Positions 3,685 through 60,391 of a stretch of 64,000 bases of DNA are shown here, one piece after another. Origin of the DNA: a virus (taxonomy: Duplodnaviria; Heunggongvirae; Uroviricota; Caudoviricetes); the IMG/VR virus record IMGVR_UViG_3300049919_000267, positions 38,379 through 102,378 of that record. The stretch is one strand, 5' to 3'. The notes below the pieces were generated by a model. That model did no database searches. It worked only from the letters and a program-made list of their open reading frames with translations, and was not told the DNA's origin. The first letter of the stretch is position 1. Every line of letters begins with the position of its first letter. The position numbers were made by a program, and so were the translations under genes.

Positions 3685-6600
3685 TTATCTTGCGTATTGC
3701 AATTCTTTAGCTTGTTGTTTTTCTATTTCTTTTCCTAAAGCATCTTTAATTTTAACAGATTCTAATTTAGAGAACCCATTAAAACTTAACTGACTATTAA
3801 AGATACCTCTTATTGTTGTTGGGTCAGTAGTAAAATAATTTACTTCTCCTGTTTTTGGATCTATTTCATCTAAATTAATATCTGAATTATTAAAAATAAG
3901 ATCTCTGATAGTATAATGAGCATTAGAAGCTGAATTAAATGAATAAGATTCCCCACTTGGACGTTTAAGAAAAATAACTTTTTGTCCACCATTTGAAGTT
4001 GGAATTTTCATTTTAATATAATAAGCTCCTGGAGCATAAGTATTACCATCTTTATTTTTAATATTTCCCAAGTTTGTATTTTGTCCTAAAGAAACTACCT
4101 GGTAGGAAACCATAGTTTGCTTACCATTTTTTTCTACTGGAATAGTTTCCCATTGAATATCATTACCAAAACTTGTATTACCTTTTTGTGTTGCAATATT
4201 TGGGTCATCATATACAAATGTTGATTTTCCTTGTTGGTTTATTCTGTTATAAACAGGCTCCATATCATCTCTATTTGCATAAGAACCCTGAGATCCTTCA
4301 ATAGGATTAATAGTAGCTTTTATTCTGGCATAAGCATCTTTCTCTGCATATAAGAATGGAGCAAAATATTGAGCATATTCAGTTGTTTTATAGTTAGGGT
4401 TAGTAGCTAGAAATGATTTAACAGACACACGACCTGTATAGTTTCTTGGTTTTCCTTCTTTATCAACACCTTTGAATGCTATTTCATACATTGGATTTGG
4501 ATTAAAAATATCTTCTGTATTACTAATAACAGCACCTCTTACTTCCATATCACTAAATCCACTAACATCGGCCGGGTTATCAATCCCATCAATTTGAATA
4601 TCATTTGGTGTAGATTGTAATCTCCCTCTTTGTAAAAATACAAGAAGACCATCTTTTACTGCATTATAAGCACTCTCATCATTTTTTAAATTAACAACAG
4701 TAGAAACTAAGTTTTCCTGTACATATGAATATGTATTTCTTACAAACTCTTCTGCTTTTGTGAAAGCTTTTTTTGAGATACCAGCCACATGATTTAAAGC
4801 ACCATCATTAATACCCATTGTAGCATCTTCTTTAGTTTTAAATCCAGAAGATAGTACATTTGAAGTTTTAAGTTTTCCAACACTTTGATTTCTTCTGTCA
4901 GTAGCATCAAGAAATTTCCAGAAACTTTTATCTTTTTCGTACACATTTTGTACTACTGACCATGTGCCATCTTTATCTTGAATAGTGTCGTATTGAATAA
5001 TAGCTTCATTGCCATATTTTTTCTTCTCTCTTTCTTTATCCAAAACATAGTTTTGATCAAGTAAGTCATCATCAGATATAGTTCTTGCAGAAACCATTTC
5101 TTCTTTACTTAAGACTCCAGATTTAAGTAACGCTTCTCTGTAAGCATTAGCCATATCTTTCTTATTTTTAATAGCCTCATCTATTTGAGCAAGACTTCTT
5201 GTAATACCTTTATCTGCAAAAATCTTTTCAAGTTTTGGAAGTAACGCAGAAGTTCCTTTCATAGTATTCATTGCATCAGAAACAATTTTATCTCCGAATG
5301 TAAATTTACTATTAGGATCTTCATCTTTATATTCAGTAAAATTTTCTTTAATCCACTTTGTAAATGATTGGTTATCTAGATGCCCATCTTCTGCTTCTTT
5401 AGTGTAAGCAAAGTTTAACCCAGCAACCATATTATAAAATTTATCTTTAGCAGCCTGATCTTTAAATCTTGGCACATTCATAGCTGCACCAGCTTTACCA
5501 CCTACTTGTACTTGATCCCAACCTGATACAAATTCACTAAGATCTATCCCATTCTCTTGAAGTTTGCCAATAAGACCGTTCATGGTATTATTAATCTCAG
5601 TATTTTTTATTTGCCATCCACTTTGAATTACATTTAAAGATAATTCAGTCTTAGGGGCATTAGGATCTACTGGAGTAAATAAAGCAACTTCATTAATTTT
5701 CTCTTCAACTGTTTTCTTTTTACCAGTACCAGTAGTTGTACCAACTTTTCCAGAATTTTTAGCTGCTTCAATAGCATCTCTTTTATCTTCAAACCACTGT
5801 TCATTTTTTACATACTCTTCTTTTTTAACCTCATCTCTTAAAACCCCAAGAGAATTCATAAACCTATTTTCTCCAAGATCTCTATGAAAAACATCCCTTG
5901 AAGTAGGGTCTGCCAAATTTAATTCCTGAAGAAATTTAATTTTACCTTCTTTAAGTTGTTTATTATATAACTCAAGACCATTGATTACTTGCTGTGCCTC
6001 TGTTTTTTTATCTCCGGCATACAAAAGAGGATCATTTTTAATTTCCTCTATTCTTTTTAGATTACTATCAATCTTAGCTTGGTATAGATTAATATCTTCT
6101 TTTTGGAGAACTTCTATAGGGACTCCTTGGTTTTCATACCAATGTTCATTCATAAGAACTTCTCTGTCTTTTGTAGACATAAGAGATTCTGTAACAAAAT
6201 TATTAAAATCAGCTTCAGAGTAATGTTTATTAGTTGATTTAATATAATAAGGTCTTTCAATATCATATCCACGATCATAAACATATTCGTTTCTTTCAAA
6301 AGCATCTTTTTTAGCTTTTACAATTCTATCTACGAGATCTTTTTTAGTAGCTAAGTTAGGAGTACTTCTACCAGTGTATTCAGCACCAGCACTTTTGGAA
6401 CCTAGCCATTTGGATACATCTGCACTTTCCCTGGCATATTGTCCAAGTTCCATCTTACCTGCCTTAAAAGCTTCATTAGCATCTTTTGACCATTTTCTGT
6501 AAACTCCAGTATTAATAACATCATTTACTATATTTTCATCTTGATATAATGGTCTAGCAAGGCCAACTAATTGGGAAACATTATTAGGATTTGAGAAATC

Positions 6601-41971: not shown

Positions 41972-42442
41972 TTATAGCATACGAGATCTTTTACACCTTT
42001 CATAAAACTCCTTTTCAAGATGTCCTAAAAGATAAGCATAAGCTTCTTCAGAAGAATTTGTCAATGGAATCCCGGCATAATTCATAATAGTAGTTGTCAC
42101 ATGAAATAACTCATGAGTAAGAACAGCTCTTTCCTCATCTGTACCTGGAATACTTGGTATCCACACAACAGGAGAATACCCTTCATTTAAATAATCGAAG
42201 GTAATTGCTTGTACATCAAAATCACTAATCTTAATTGTTGTATCATTCAGATACTTTCTTATCCTATTGAAAGCTGCCAAAGTATCTTGTGTAACAATAA
42301 TTATAACACCTACCTGATAGATCTCAGTCTTAACTAAGACTTCTTTGTATGATTTGTTACTACCTGGTGGAGCCATTGACATATCATAAACAAACAACCC
42401 AAGAATAAGTAAGAACCCAAGAACAGCCATAATTTTAATCAT
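41972..42442 (-). CDS. Membrane-anchored HExxH putative metallopeptidase (156 aa)
   Basis: N-terminal hydrophobic segment (MIKIMAVLGFLLILGLFVY) and …LTHELFHVT… (HELFH). Confidence 0.5.
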   Translation of the reverse strand: MIKIMAVLGFLLILGLFVYDMSMAPPGSNKSYKEVLVKTEIYQVGVIIIVTQDTLAAFNRIRKYLNDTTIKISDFDVQAITFDYLNEGYSPVVWIPSIPGTDEERAVLTHELFHVTTTIMNYAGIPLTNSSEEAYAYLLGHLEKEFYERCKRSRML

Positions 42443-45570: not shown

Positions 45571-45900
45571 ATGAAGAAACAAAAAATTACGAGCAATGAA
45601 ATGAAATCATTAATTAGCTCAAGAAAACAACAAATACATATTTATCATGCTATTCAAGATGATAAAATGTTTACAGAAATTGAACAACAACCCCGAAAAT
45701 ATATTGGGTTTATTCATGCAGAAACCTTAGAACAAGCTTATAATTTATGTCAAAATGACAATCTTCATCCTGATTACTTATATTATAATGTAAGATCATT
45801 ATCAGTTGGTGATATGTTATTAATAGGACATGAATTTTATATGGTTTGCAATTTAGGTTTTAGAATGATATGTTCCTTCAGTAATGAAGGTGAAGAATAG
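45571..45900 (+). CDS. Hypothetical protein (109 aa); start moved to the ATG after a GGAGG RBS
   Basis: …ttggaggtattATGAAGAAAC… The ORF-track start at 45511 is upstream and probably a non-ATG start. Confidence 0.5.
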   Translation: MKKQKITSNEMKSLISSRKQQIHIYHAIQDDKMFTEIEQQPRKYIGFIHAETLEQAYNLCQNDNLHPDYLYYNVRSLSVGDMLLIGHEFYMVCNLGFRMICSFSNEGEE

Positions 45901-46600
45901 GTGTTTTTCATAGGTTAGCCAACAACGGGCTGAGTTTATACTTGGCCCTCTTTTAAATCTTTCTAGTTAATCATTGACCCAAACACTATTGTATGCAGAG
46001 CAACCTAGGTGTGTGACGGACTGCATAGTGATTAACTAGTTATTAATAATTTAAAACAATTGTAATGACAATCTGTGTAAGAGTATCTTTGGCTATCACC
46101 AAAGCGTCAGCAAGTTACAGTTGTTTTGAACTAAGTTTGTTCTGTACTTTGGTAATGCATTACCTTAAACAGGGCTATTGGGTAAGCTGCCCAACTTGAT
46201 TGGAGAGGAACACTAATATCTATCTTGTAATCTAGAGATACAAGCTGGTAATTGGGAAACCAAGTCATGCTATATTAGCAATTCCAATGTAGGCTCATAT
46301 ACCTGAATGTGTATGTATTGTAATATTTAACATAGTTATTTCTATGGCTGCAAATTTTCATTTGTTGAACAATAAAATATTACAATAATTATCACTGTGA
46401 GAATCAGTGACATAGAGAATAGAAGGACATAATTCCATGTTAGAAGGAGTCCATTATATTCTCTTGGGGCTTATATTCTTGATATTAATAGAATACAGAC
46501 AAAGGTAGACTCAAACTTAAATGTGAGTAACTGGTGGACACTATTAATAATCAAGGTATTAGTGCGTAATAAATTAAACTTAAAAAACAAATATATTATT

Positions 46601-46918
46601 ATGAAAGATATTTTTTTTAATTGGAAGCTTACTATAATATTTTTTCTTATTGCACACCTTTTTATGTTAATTATTGCAATATCTAAAACATCACAAAAAC
46701 ATCAATGTATTGATGAAACACACCAAACATGTGATGGTAATTGTGAATGTGATGGGATAGAATGTGATACACATTATCATAATGGTCAAGAGTGCCAATA
46801 TGAAGGATTAGAATGTCCTATATTATCAAAGACTTTAAATCTTATTGTAGTGTTATCTTCAGACTACAATACCTCCAACCAACAGAGGATGAAATACTCC
46901 TTTGTTGGTTATTTTTAA
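46601..46918 (+). CDS. Small membrane-anchored Cys-rich protein (105 aa)
   Basis: ATG at 46601 (MKDIFFNWKLTIIFFLIAHLFMLIIAI…), then …CIDETHQTCDGNCECDGIECDTHYHNGQECQYEGLEC…. Confidence 0.45.
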   Translation: MKDIFFNWKLTIIFFLIAHLFMLIIAISKTSQKHQCIDETHQTCDGNCECDGIECDTHYHNGQECQYEGLECPILSKTLNLIVVLSSDYNTSNQQRMKYSFVGYF

Positions 46919-47921
46919 CTTTATTCATATTATTATGTAATTAATTCAGCCAATGTATTGGTGCAGACACTTGCAGACCTTTAATAAGGATAAAAGATGA
47001 GCCAGGAAATATTCCATCTGCAAACTGGTCAGGTAATACACTTATTGTTATTAATGACAATAATGCCTGATGTTATTTAAATTTTGTAAATTACCACTGT
47101 CGTGGAATTGTGTAATACCATTGAAGACCCAATGATTGTAACCAACAATCAAATGCTAAACTATGTTGTATTCATATAAAAAGCCTTTAATAAGAACTAT
47201 TAGAGGCTATATTATTATAGATATAAAGACATATCTCACTTTGATTTAGGGAAAAATTGATGTACTTATCCCTTTGATTTAGGTACAGTTGAGTTCAAAA
47301 GTGTAAATAGAACTTAATTAGCTGTTGTAAGATTATGACGATATGAGTACATTGCAGCACCAAAAAAAGTTTACACAATTGTTAGTTAATATTAGTGCAT
47401 TTAATGAACAAAACAATTATCCAATGAAATTATCTAAAAGTTATTGCAAGAACTAAGATACATATCAGAGAAATAAAAAACAAAAAGAAGCAAAAAATCC
47501 GAAATGTTAATTAATGTTTAACAGAATGCAACATTGTAGTGTATTAGAATGAATATACATAATGACCTGTTTTATCTTAATTTCGGAATATATACATGAT
47601 TAACATTTTAAACTGAAAAGTCTAAGATGCTCATGTAATTGTCCAATTGAACAGCCCTGAAACAAACTAGCCAAGAGGAACTCTCGTTAGATTGTTAAGG
47701 GCTGTTTTTTATTTTGATTATAATATTATCTATTATATTTTAAGAGCCTTTGTTGAGCATGGTGGATAGAGTCTGGGAGTACATGGTTACCAATCATGTA
47801 CATACTGTCAGACATAACAGTAGAAAAAAGGGGGAAAAGTAGAGCATGTAATGTGAATACAACTTTTGTCCCGGACTTTATTATTAAAACTAATTTAAAA
47901 CAACAATAAAAAACAAAAAAC

Positions 47922-48458
47922 ATGAAACACATAGTATTATTTATATTACTTATTCTTCTTGTATTAGCTACAGGAAGATCTCAAGCATATCTTGATTGTA
48001 ATGTTGGAGTTATTTCTGGTTATAACAATCAAATAGTAGGGGGTGTTCAGGTTCCTCATCCTACTTATGTATTATTTAAAGATATTGTAGAACCTGTAAG
48101 AAAAACAAGTCTAAATGTTTCTTTATCAGGAGGTTATATGTTTAATCATTTAACTGTCTTTGGTACATTAATAAGACCTTTAGATAGTACTAATCCAACC
48201 ATGATTAATGGAAGTATTGGATGGGTATTCATTAATAGGGACAGTTATGAAAATAAAATAGGACTTCAACCTTCTTTAGGATATACTCAATACTTGAATG
48301 ATAATAATGATATTGGTGGTTCTCTAAATGGAGGAATTCAACTTCAATTTTGGAAAGTTGCAGCTATAGAAGGACACAAAATCTTTTATATTGATTATAA
48401 ATACCAATATAAGCATCATATCTTTGGAATAGGTATGAAGTTTAGTAATAGGTTATAA
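47922..48458 (+). CDS. Signal-peptide protein with outer-membrane beta-barrel-like features (178 aa)
   Basis: N-terminal MKHIVLFILLILLVLATGRSQA, alternating hydrophobic beta-strand pattern, Gly/Asn/Tyr-rich. Aromatic-rich C-terminal region (…GIGMKFSNRL). Confidence 0.5.
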   Translation: MKHIVLFILLILLVLATGRSQAYLDCNVGVISGYNNQIVGGVQVPHPTYVLFKDIVEPVRKTSLNVSLSGGYMFNHLTVFGTLIRPLDSTNPTMINGSIGWVFINRDSYENKIGLQPSLGYTQYLNDNNDIGGSLNGGIQLQFWKVAAIEGHKIFYIDYKYQYKHHIFGIGMKFSNRL

Positions 48459-48813
48459 AATATTGCTGTTGACGAAAACTTAACAGTGAGTATCAACAGT
48501 ATTACAAGAGTAGCTGATTATATTATGCTGTAATCAGCTATCTCTTGTATCAATTTACAAATCAGGGAACAAAATTCACTGGACGTAGTTGGATCAACCC
48601 AACACACTTAGTTGGTGGTATAAGTGACCATAAACAGTGTACCTGATTATTAATGATAGGATATTGAGGAGTCATAGCTTAAAATAAACTATATAAATAT
48701 TTTAAGAAAGGTTATCAAACGAGACTTAATTAAGAAGGGAGAAAAAAAATGGTAGTTAACGCCTTACTTCTGTCCTTAATATTTATCAATTATTATTTAA
48801 TAAACCCAAAAAT

Positions 48814-49302
48814 ATGAATACATTAATATTAACAATAATATTGTTTTTTACACAAGAACTTAGATGGACTGAATCTGTTCTTACAAAAGAAAATTTTAAA
48901 ACTGTTACACCTAAAGAAAGTAATGAATTAGCAAAAATATACACTGGTATTGGTATTAATATTAATTATAATCAAACTGGTAAAGGGAGGGCTTATGCTT
49001 ATATGGATGAACAAAAAAGTGAATTAAGAGCTGATTTATTATATAATAATACTAATAAGCTGAATGAAACACTTATACATGAAAAAGGACATTTTGATCT
49101 TACTGAATGGATTGTAAGATGTCTAAATAGAGAACTTAAAAATATTACTGAAATAAGTATTATATATAAGCTTTTGTATAAGTATAATGATCAGCTTAAT
49201 TATTGGCAAAAAATATATGATACTGAAACAGATCATAGTAATAATAAAGAGAATCAAAAAATTTGGAATGAAAAGATAAGAAAACTATTATTAAATTTTT
49301 AA
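48814..49302 (+). CDS. Secreted putative Zn-metallopeptidase (HEKGH motif), DUF922-like (162 aa)
   Basis: Signal-like N-terminus and …TLIHEKGHFDLTEW… (HExxH). Confidence 0.45.
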   Translation: MNTLILTIILFFTQELRWTESVLTKENFKTVTPKESNELAKIYTGIGININYNQTGKGRAYAYMDEQKSELRADLLYNNTNKLNETLIHEKGHFDLTEWIVRCLNRELKNITEISIIYKLLYKYNDQLNYWQKIYDTETDHSNNKENQKIWNEKIRKLLLNF

Positions 49303-54675: not shown

Positions 54676-54762
54676 TTTCTATTGGCTGAGAGGATTAAGG
54701 CAAGGGGTATTGAATCCCCTGACTTCGGAAGAAGTCCAAGAGTTCGAATCTCTTATAGAAAA
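54676..54762 (+). tRNA. tRNA-Ser (UGA), type II with a long variable arm
   Basis: TTTCTAT / ATAGAAA acceptor stem, anticodon loop AUUGAAU, variable arm GACTTC-GGAA-GAAGTC, T-arm AAGAG-TTCGAAT-CTCTT. The D-arm is short with a G·U pair. Boundaries are about ±2 nt. Confidence 0.6.
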
Positions 54763-54798
54763 CAAGTTTTGCTGCATTTTCCTTAGAAAAATCAGAGG

Positions 54799-55307: not shown

Positions 55308-55379
55308 ATTCCTGTGGCTTAATTGGTAGAGCATCCCCCTGAAAGGGGAAGGTTGTAGGTTCGAGTCCTACCAGGCATC
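55308..55379 (+). tRNA. tRNA-Phe-like (GAA) with stem mismatches
   Basis: D-arm GCTT…GAGC, anticodon loop CUGAAAG (GAA) on a CCCC/GGGG stem with a C·A mismatch, T-arm GTAGG-TTCGAGT-CCTAC. The acceptor stem has one T·C mismatch. An alternative fold gives a 6-nt anticodon loop. Confidence 0.45.
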
Positions 55380-55414
55380 CTGAATTATTTTTAATATAAA
55401 ACTTCAAATTCAAA

Positions 55415-59831: not shown

Positions 59832-60232
59832 GGGTCTGACAGGCATTTGACAGCAATGGATTGGAATTATGGGTATGCAGGGAGAATGATTCTATACTTC
59901 CTTGATAAATGTGAATCAAATCTAGATGTAGAAGTATCTAACATCACCGTAGGTGCAGAAGGAAACATTGATAGCTTATTAGCTTCTTTGTCTTATTCAG
60001 TTGAGTCTGAGCTTGCTCTGGCTTAATTCACCCCCAGAACTCTATGGGTATAAATGAGAACTTTTTCTTTTGGTATATTCTTCAAATAAGAATCTACTCT
60101 GAATATTAACCTGGCTTAACAGTAAATTAGCTAAAGGCCTTTGGAGCAGTAGGACTGCTATCCTAAGCATATAAGTCAACCATAATTACTTTACAATGTA
60201 TGGACAAGGGTTCGACTCCCTTCAGATCCACC
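59832..60232 (+). ncRNA. ssrA: tmRNA (ssrA-like transfer-messenger RNA), apparently phage-encoded
   Basis: The 5' GGGTCTG pairs with the 3' CAGATCC-A-CC. The 3' end GGACAAGGGTTCGACTCCCTTCAGATCCACC closely mirrors the E. coli tmRNA 3' end (GGACGCGGGTTCAACTCCCGCCAGCTCCACCA). An internal reading frame ends …SYSVESELALA-TAA at 60024-60026, with candidate resume codons GCA at 59955 or GCT at 59982. Length about 401 nt. Confidence 0.6.
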
Positions 60233-60307: not shown

Positions 60308-60391
60308 GGGCAAGTGGTGGAATTGGCAGACACACAAACTTCGATGTTTGTTCTTAACAGAGTATAGGTTCGAATCCTATTTTGTCCACCA
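60308..60391 (+). tRNA. Type II (long variable arm, Leu/Ser-like) tRNA with an aberrant anticodon loop. Isotype unresolved; CCA encoded.
   Basis: D-arm TGGTGGAATTGGCAGACAC (Leu-like), T-arm ATAGG-TTCGAAT-CCTAT, acceptor GGGCAAG / TTTGTCC (2 G·U), terminal ACCA. The anticodon region ACAAAC-TTCGAT-GTTTGT folds as a 5-bp stem with either a 6-nt loop (UUCGAU) or an 8-nt loop (CUUCGAUG), never a canonical 7-nt loop. Confidence 0.5.

Follow-up and report, generated by a model that had tools for sequence, protein, structure and literature searches.

The gene-free kilobase at positions 46919-47921 of a 64,000-nucleotide (nt) stretch of the uncultured phage record IMGVR_UViG_3300049919_000267 (the whole stretch is hereafter the window) is truly non-coding, and about two-thirds of it is a two-part structured RNA locus, the remainder being unconserved spacer. 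The two parts, here called block A and block B, have kept their sequence, order and base-pairing across eight collinear contigs, always with a hairpin and a run of U between them, and the locus is common to at least eight related uncultured crAss-like phages. We consider it probable, though well short of certain, that these are two adjacent structured RNA elements on the plus strand, a terminator-ended non-coding RNA gene (A) followed by a leader (B).

Contigs encoding an identical copy of the 178-amino-acid (aa) protein whose gene follows the locus were 100% identical to the window and held no comparative information. An exhaustive HMMER search with a concatenate of eight flanking proteins identified neighbours with homologs, and the contigs carrying the homologs were then fetched: L021 was reached via a 109-aa protein, and L031, L032/L033, L038/L039 and L040 via a 162-aa protein (48814-49302), while L034/L035 and L045 were added from the Joint Genome Institute (JGI) and IMG/VR by pattern scans for the conserved core. 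The seven related phage contigs are collinear with the window, carrying homologs (30-80% amino-acid identity) of the genes at 42439, 43252, 44650, 45571, 48814, 49622 and 50069 in order, and both blocks lie at the same place in all seven, which with the window makes eight phages. The blocks co-occur always, in the same order and 450-530 nt apart. In L021, positions 6016-6199 match window 47243-47427 at 74.9% over 187 nt (E = 2.6e-25) and positions 6455-6583 match 47757-47885 at 71%; the blocks' DNA, within the gap, gives the strongest nucleotide match that L021 has to the window, the best coding match being 70%. The parts of the locus are as follows.

47243-47362, plus strand: core of block A, a structured RNA (R2 model, covariation)
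47363-47515, plus strand: 3' extension of block A, conserved in sequence in the five closest phages
47516-47648, plus strand: variable middle segment, different in length and sequence in every relative (comparison of the relatives)
47649-47716, plus strand: predicted intrinsic terminator, a 58-nt hairpin with a G+C-rich base, then TTTTTTATTTT
47717-47754, plus strand: AT-rich spacer, in which a TATATT..TAAGA..CTTTG(G) motif is partly conserved (sequence comparison)
47755-47886, plus strand: block B, a five-helix structured RNA (R1 model, covariation)
47887-47921, plus strand: unstructured, A-rich leader that runs to the start codon (ATG) of the 178-aa gene (sequence)

Similarity in block A reaches beyond the core to ~47515 (nhmmer match 47226-47515), and the strings ACAATTGT, TAGYGCATTT, AATTATCCAATG and TTGCAAG are conserved in its 3' extension. 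The core contains three helix systems, one of which is a candidate pseudoknot. Hairpin A2 pairs 47289-47296 with 47310-47317, and the composite helix A3 pairs 47321-47336 with 47341-47358 beneath an invariant apical loop, UGACG. The 5' pseudoknot is a candidate only: it would be of H type, with AGGG (47248-47251) pairing with CCCT (CCCU in the RNA; 47270-47273) within the loop of a stem formed by 47262-47268 and 47280-47286; among the relatives, L034 has GGGG/CCCC here, and L040 and L045 have compensated stems. Given plain MAFFT alignments, RNAalifold predicted both A2 and A3, with compensatory changes at 10 pairs. Covariance model R2 finds one copy in each of the eight phage contigs at 91-115 bits, among them L045, which nhmmer had missed. 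In the R2 alignment 91.7% of cells are paired, two-sided changes occur in 17 of 27 pairs, none of 500 shuffles reaches the observed covariation, and slid controls give 40-53%. Indels among the relatives in block A have lengths that are not multiples of three.

Block B folds into five helices: the closing helix P1 (47765-47778/47869-47882), P2 (47779-47786/47794-47801), P3 (47805-47808/47817-47820), the loop of which is kept as GACAUA, P4 (47826-47830/47863-47867) and P5 (47839-47842/47858-47860). P2 is the GTACATG-N9-CATGTAC hairpin that a first-pass annotation, made from the sequence alone, had picked out at about 47772-47796; it is present, at 47779-47801, and is supported by covariation, its stem sequence differing in nearly every phage. 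GGUGGAUAG, ahead of and inside the 5' side of P1, is invariant. RNAalifold recovered P1-P4 unaided from a plain MAFFT alignment of five sequences, with two-sided changes in 13 of 29 pairs, and a structure set by hand on the MAFFT alignment has 11 pairs with two-sided changes, values that none of 500 shuffles reaches. With covariance model R1, each of the eight phages yields a single copy (53-134 bits). Its alignment of seven sequences pairs 92.7% of cells and shows two-sided changes in half of the pairs (17 of 34); again all 500 shuffles fall short, and when the partners are slid by 1-3 columns the pairing is 36-56%. The short open reading frame (ORF) across block B has an in-frame TGA in five of the seven aligned sequences, and the distance from the end of the block to the following start codon is 16-48 nt in all eight phages.

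An 8-mer, GGATAGRG, occurs both in the loop of hairpin A2 and on the 5' strand of P1 in two of the relatives (L021 6077-6084 and 6462-6469; L031 3636-3643 and 4125-4132), and GGAUAGAG is a motif shared by the block A and block B RNAs; the window has AATAGAA in block A where L021 and L031 have GGATAGRG. The motif shared by the blocks in these two phages may be a protein-binding motif or a coincidence.

G-U pairs make up ~14% of paired cells in both blocks. As these would be A-C mismatches on the other strand, the block RNAs are assigned to the plus strand, the only strand on which runs of U stand behind the hairpins.

Between the blocks, the first-pass annotation had drawn attention to a terminator-like element that looked like the 3' end of a stable RNA (47651-47715), and the element was confirmed. 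ACAGCCC (47651-47657) and GGGCTGT (47699-47705) are followed by TTTTTTATTTT to ~47716; 47649-47706 folds as an irregular hairpin of 58 nt, and the 246 nt at 47480-47725 have a fold z of -5.3. The stretch 47649-47716 thus combines the stable hairpin, G+C-rich base and immediate U-run by which intrinsic terminators are recognised; a simple terminator scanner, with a loop limit of 3-8 nt, missed it. A hairpin with a G+C-rich base and an immediate U-run occupies the last ~40-90 nt ahead of block B in eight of eight phages, and the stems share no sequence, position alone being kept. Most simply, 47649-47716 would be the 3' end of the block A transcript.

Outside the eight phages the locus was sought in several ways. 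R1 found nothing credible, phi14:2 included, and a blastn search of 50,697 GenBank phages with the window region and with the L038 and L040 elements gave zero matches. In IMG/VR, peptide-pattern scans with four flanking proteins returned no relatives and exact 17-mers from each block returned chance matches only; a word-index protein search with the 178-aa protein retrieved only the protein itself. Two hits from a scan of a genome collection, L036 (Cyclobacteriaceae) and L037 (Kribbella), were rejected as chance: neither has an nhmmer match, and that in L036 sits in coding-looking sequence with no significant R1 match.

The Rfam/Infernal scan placed no RNA family in the region. At gathering thresholds Rfam 15 finds only tRNAs and the transfer-messenger RNA (tmRNA) in the window, all of them elsewhere; at E<=10, window 45800-48900 yields only noise (15-21 bits), and at E<=0.5-1 the seven relatives yield only tRNAs and noise. 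The literature contained no description that we could find of such RNAs in crAss-like phages.

Several features proposed by the first-pass annotation fared less well than the hairpins. Its surmise that the region has RNA elements of its own is borne out by the two covariation-supported blocks; the conserved stretches themselves (47243 to ~47515 and 47755-47886), which are the two features above chance, had escaped it. The 12-nt direct repeat CTTTGATTTAGG exists, at 47239-47250 and 47272-47283 (the second one base from where it had been placed), and it is not an element in its own right: it overlaps the 5' edge of block A, an exact 12-mer repeat within 60 nt arises in ~3% of dinucleotide shuffles, and in the relatives it is not a repeat. 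The inverted repeats at 47496-47609, read as a long stem or as a miniature inverted-repeat transposable element (MITE), likewise have the bases described, TCCGAAAT (47498-47505) pairing with ATTTCGGA (47580-47587) and AAATGTTAAT (47503-47512) with ATTAACATTT (47599-47608). As these pairings share bases and are not nested, they are alternatives and not one long stem. Shuffled sequence has inverted repeats of this size and spacing (8-9 bp, within 120 nt) just as often (p = 0.2-0.44), and the segment is unconserved in every relative. A MITE or other small mobile element was rejected, the inverted repeats being at chance level, absent in the relatives and single-copy in the 64-kb window. No second copy of any part of 46919-47921 exists within the window, nor are there internal repeats or paralogous copies.

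Could the kilobase be an annotation gap, hiding a missed or decayed protein-coding gene? The region had been described as ORF-poor, and the 1003 nt between the end of a coding sequence (CDS) at 46918 and an ATG at 47922 indeed contain TAA, TAG and TGA many times each in all six frames. Reassignment of a stop codon is excluded as the cause of the gap, since recoding of any single stop opens no frame. Gene callers do place ORFs of 30-40 aa here in some contigs, and there is one weak tblastn match between ORFs (E = 4e-5). That match, however, mirrors nucleotide conservation; substitutions track base-pairing and not codon positions, no relative has a conserved protein gene here, the frames being broken by stops and indels, and the spacers hold no remnant of a relative's protein gene. 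A hidden gene is accordingly given hardly any credence. Equally little is given to the idea that the whole is AT-rich filler with coincidental repeats and hairpins. It holds for the inverted repeats at 47496-47609, which are at chance level, and for 46919-47235 and ~47516-47648, which are unconserved, but it is refuted for both blocks by matches of 53-134 bits in eight phages with compensatory changes. A function at the DNA level, with the hairpins serving as promoters for an injected virion RNA polymerase, as the hairpin promoters of phage N4 do, or as part of a replication origin near the strand switch, seems improbable without being negligible. Transcription changes direction at ~43 kb, where cumulative GC skew also has its minimum, some 4 kb from the locus, and the virion polymerase of the crAss-like phage phi14:2 transcribed denatured DNA in vitro, its early promoters having no known motif (bioRxiv 10.1101/2020.03.07.982082). 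Against this, the plus strand keeps many G-U pairs, each of them an A-C mismatch if read on the template strand, the multi-helix junction and the terminator indicate RNA, and there are neither iterons nor AT-rich unwinding repeats.

Two further possibilities accept the RNA and divide it differently. Blocks A and B might be two domains of a single structured RNA of ~650 nt, the 'terminator' being an internal hairpin or a partial attenuator. Their constant company, order and spacing would suit this, as would the 8-mer found in both blocks of L021 and L031; yet every phage has the intrinsic-terminator signature of a G+C-rich-base hairpin with a direct U-run, what lies between the blocks differs in length and sequence from phage to phage, and no long-range pairing between A and B is predicted, so that we regard a single RNA as rather unlikely. 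A slightly better, still minor chance goes to block B being an independent trans-acting small RNA of ~125 nt that ends at the U-rich run after P1, and not an mRNA leader. The 3' strand of P1 enters U-rich sequence in all members (for example CUAUUUUU), and with a downstream gene that varies, gene-specific regulation is not apparent. However, an intrinsic terminator would not typically have a multi-branch insert of ~90 nt between its strands, as P1 does, the constant 16-48 nt to the start codon fits a 5' untranslated region (UTR), and A/U-rich sequence ahead of start codons is general in this genome.

What follows block B bears directly on its role, and the flanking features are these.

46877-46910, plus strand: terminator-like hairpin in which the 105-aa gene upstream ends (13 pairs, 5 of them GC, T-rich tail)
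46919-47235, no strand assigned: unconserved spacer (nhmmer, no matches in nine loci, six of them relatives that carry the element)
47922-48458, plus strand: gene for a secreted 178-aa protein, likely of outer-membrane type, a cargo gene between block B and the 162-aa gene
48814-49302, plus strand: conserved 162-aa gene (similarity to DUF922 weak and sub-threshold)

The collinear relatives carry different genes at this point. The gene directly behind block B encodes the 178-aa protein in the window and a 188-aa homolog, 41% identical, in L032; it encodes a secreted protein of 158 aa in L034, and is a Cys-rich ORF of 56 aa in L021 and an ORF of 86 aa in L045. L031, L038 and L040 have nothing between, and there the homolog of the 162-aa gene comes directly after block B. 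With a following gene that changes from phage to phage, the site just behind block B is an insertion spot for cargo genes ahead of the conserved 162-aa gene. Homologs of the 178-aa protein outside the phage group (47-49% identity; L010-L017) lie in bacterial chromosomal contexts, directly downstream of Fer4/NrfD-type (respiratory) oxidoreductase genes. The 178-aa gene has two marks of a moron, variable presence at a fixed position between conserved genes and host-like origin, in that the only homologs found apart from the L032 copy are on bacterial contigs. It has a terminator-like hairpin 3' (13 bp, 48510-48541) and no identifiable promoter ahead, and appears to use the conserved block B leader in place of a promoter of its own. 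The suggestion of an accessory 'moron' island is supported as regards the variable cargo spot behind block B; it is not supported as regards the pairing of this region with the gap at 45.9-46.6 kb as a similar RNA region, that gap having no nhmmer match in the relatives, a single short blastn match at its 5' edge, and no R1 or R2 match.

On the reading we prefer, that of a non-coding RNA gene followed by a leader, block A and its variable tail would form a separate gene of ~470 nt (~47243 to ~47716). It would probably be transcribed rightward with the early genes and ended by the intrinsic terminator, and its product would act in trans as a stable folded RNA. Block B would head the following transcription unit as its structured 5' leader, with a start near 47755-47762 driven by a putative promoter in the AT-rich spacer of 40-90 nt (47717-47754 in the window, where no match to the Bacteroidota TTTG/TAnnTTTG pattern was seen). 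Because the gene behind it varies, a gene-specific riboswitch is unlikely, and block B more likely has a general effect on the transcript than senses a gene-specific ligand. The mechanism that we would favour, though we attach a low probability to it, is a cis effect of block B on the mRNA or on the polymerase as it transcribes, via processive antitermination or stabilisation; such an action would keep expression running through inserted cargo genes that bear terminators.

Certain observations weigh against this reading or limit its reach. What is said here of start sites, terminator use and direction of action is inference throughout. Ahead of block A no promoter motif is conserved, scans for host-type promoter consensus showed no enrichment, and several relatives have just 5-40 nt between the end of the upstream CDS and the block; given that closeness and the missing motif, the block A RNA may be a processed 3' UTR, its 5' end arising by read-through and processing. 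L038 and L045 have a short hairpin in place of the P5/GGGGGAAUGUG module, so that part of block B is dispensable. The comparative set is eight mutually related sequences, and alignments made with covariance models lean toward the modelled structure, though the MAFFT-only alignments agree. The analogy with phi14:2 discussed below is positional only.

The window is part of a crAss-like phage of ~102 kb with ~30% G+C (longest contig 102,378 nt). For the terminase, the portal and the major head protein there are matches to PHROG families of the same function, and the terminase shares 28% identity with its counterparts in named crAss-like phages and 34% with that of Leptolyngbya phage Lbo-JY46. Structural genes occupy the minus strand as far as 43014; from 43252 the plus strand carries small, tightly packed genes together with 16 tRNA genes and one tmRNA, and sequence ahead of start codons in the window is A-rich and lacks Shine-Dalgarno motifs. 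Three conspicuous gaps interrupt the packed block, at 45901-46600 (700 nt), 46919-47921 (1003 nt) and 48459-48813 (355 nt). The locus is separated from the 105-aa gene (stop codon 46916-46918) by the hairpin at 46877-46910, and a second terminator-like hairpin (47182-47208) lies within the spacer ~35 nt ahead of block A; L031 and L038 likewise have a hairpin 25-35 nt ahead of the block. In the relatives nhmmer finds no match to the gap's first 317 nt, to its middle segment (~47516-47648) or to either neighbouring gap.

The neighbouring gaps show a single exception to this lack of conservation, a blastn match of 60 nt found at the first gap's 5' edge: 45901-45957, the first 57 nt of the 700-nt gap including a terminator-like hairpin at 45927-45948, is 80% identical to L032 7416-7473, a stretch 3' of a gene, and the remainder of that gap is unconserved. 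Within it, a 12-bp deletion in L006 (46391-46402), the sole difference among otherwise 100% identical contigs, takes out one arm of the hairpin TATCACTGTGAGAATCAGTGACA. The 355-nt gap behind the 178-aa gene folds far better than shuffles on both strands (48400-48650, z -5 to -7). Small Cys-rich secreted proteins adjoin the RNA locus in two phages, the 105-aa protein of the window (46601-46918) and the 56-aa protein of L021 (6600-6770, with a lipoprotein-like signal), and no homology was detected between the two. The tmRNA of the window lies at 59832-60232, with tag peptide AEGNIDSLLASLSYSVESELALA. ARAGORN reports three 'tRNA-???' genes with irregular anticodon loops at 54676-54763, 55308-55380 and 60308-60391; the Rfam tRNA model also matches 55308-55379 and 60308-60388, and the three could be intron-containing, atypical or suppressor-like tRNAs.

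Among known systems, the closest parallel for block A may be phi14:2, in which two long stretches between genes, those of g004-g005 and g005-g006, yield early long non-coding RNAs (lncRNAs) that are more abundant than most mRNAs, appear from the earliest time point and persist (Drobysheva et al., bioRxiv 10.1101/2020.03.07.982082). By analogy, block A resembles these RNAs: both phages have gene-free stretches of ~0.7-1 kb flanking small genes, in a small-gene block beside a strand switch, and in phi14:2 that block is the early region and the stretches are transcribed in gene direction. There is, however, no sequence similarity to its non-coding regions: phi14:2 has no R2 match and its best R1 match is 12 bits. 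One of the phi14:2 regions also contains a tmRNA-like RNA, whereas the tmRNA of the window lies elsewhere. In g005-g006 (L009, NC_021806, 4031-4502, plus strand) the Rfam tmRNA model scores 46 bits (E = 3.8e-16), one bit below gathering, and the lncRNA from this region may be a phage tmRNA.

The put RNAs of HK022, an enterobacterial lambdoid phage, are processive antitermination leaders of ~70 nt that consist of two stem-loops and act in cis. Like them, block B is a structured phage RNA near the start of a transcription unit with terminators downstream; unlike them, it has five helices and no known sequence relation, its fit to put is one of position (behind a putative promoter and ahead of terminator-bearing genes), and antitermination here is pure conjecture. 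GOLLD, ROOL and similar RNAs in Rfam are likewise phage-borne, multi-helix and found in tRNA-rich genomes, but they are larger than the conserved cores of the present locus (~120-270 nt and ~130 nt), which have no Rfam 15 match. With leaders of the riboswitch type block B shares a complex junction fold, invariant unpaired bases and a position 16-48 nt ahead of the start codon; it differs in that the gene it would control varies, that no overlapping terminator/antiterminator or start-masking platform is seen, and that no ligand is suggested. A 2023 catalogue of candidate structured RNAs from IMG/VR required at least three distinct IMG/VR regions (PMC10690425). Its motifs are also covariation-supported, intergenic and from uncultured phages, many upstream of genes or with terminators; the exact-pattern scans found only two IMG/VR contigs with the present element, and some overlap with that catalogue is possible. 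We class the locus as a new family within the phage structured non-coding and leader RNAs, the comparison with the catalogue being by description only.

A vague long intergenic region can now be described as specific helices, invariant bases and a terminator, and one phage lineage has gained two covariation-supported RNA structures with searchable models, situated at a site of cargo exchange beside the strand switch. More speculatively, and with odds clearly against it, block B, maybe together with the block A RNA, could represent a new class of phage leader, a fixed 'expression socket' for any cargo gene, in which the structured element would modify the transcription complex (processive antitermination) or the mRNA such that the cargo behind it is expressed. 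The crAss-like phages are among the most abundant phages known, and their early gene expression is poorly understood, no promoter motif being known for their injected RNA polymerase and no function being assigned to the early lncRNAs of phi14:2. If true, an expression socket would explain why different secreted-protein genes accumulate at exactly this spot in these phages.

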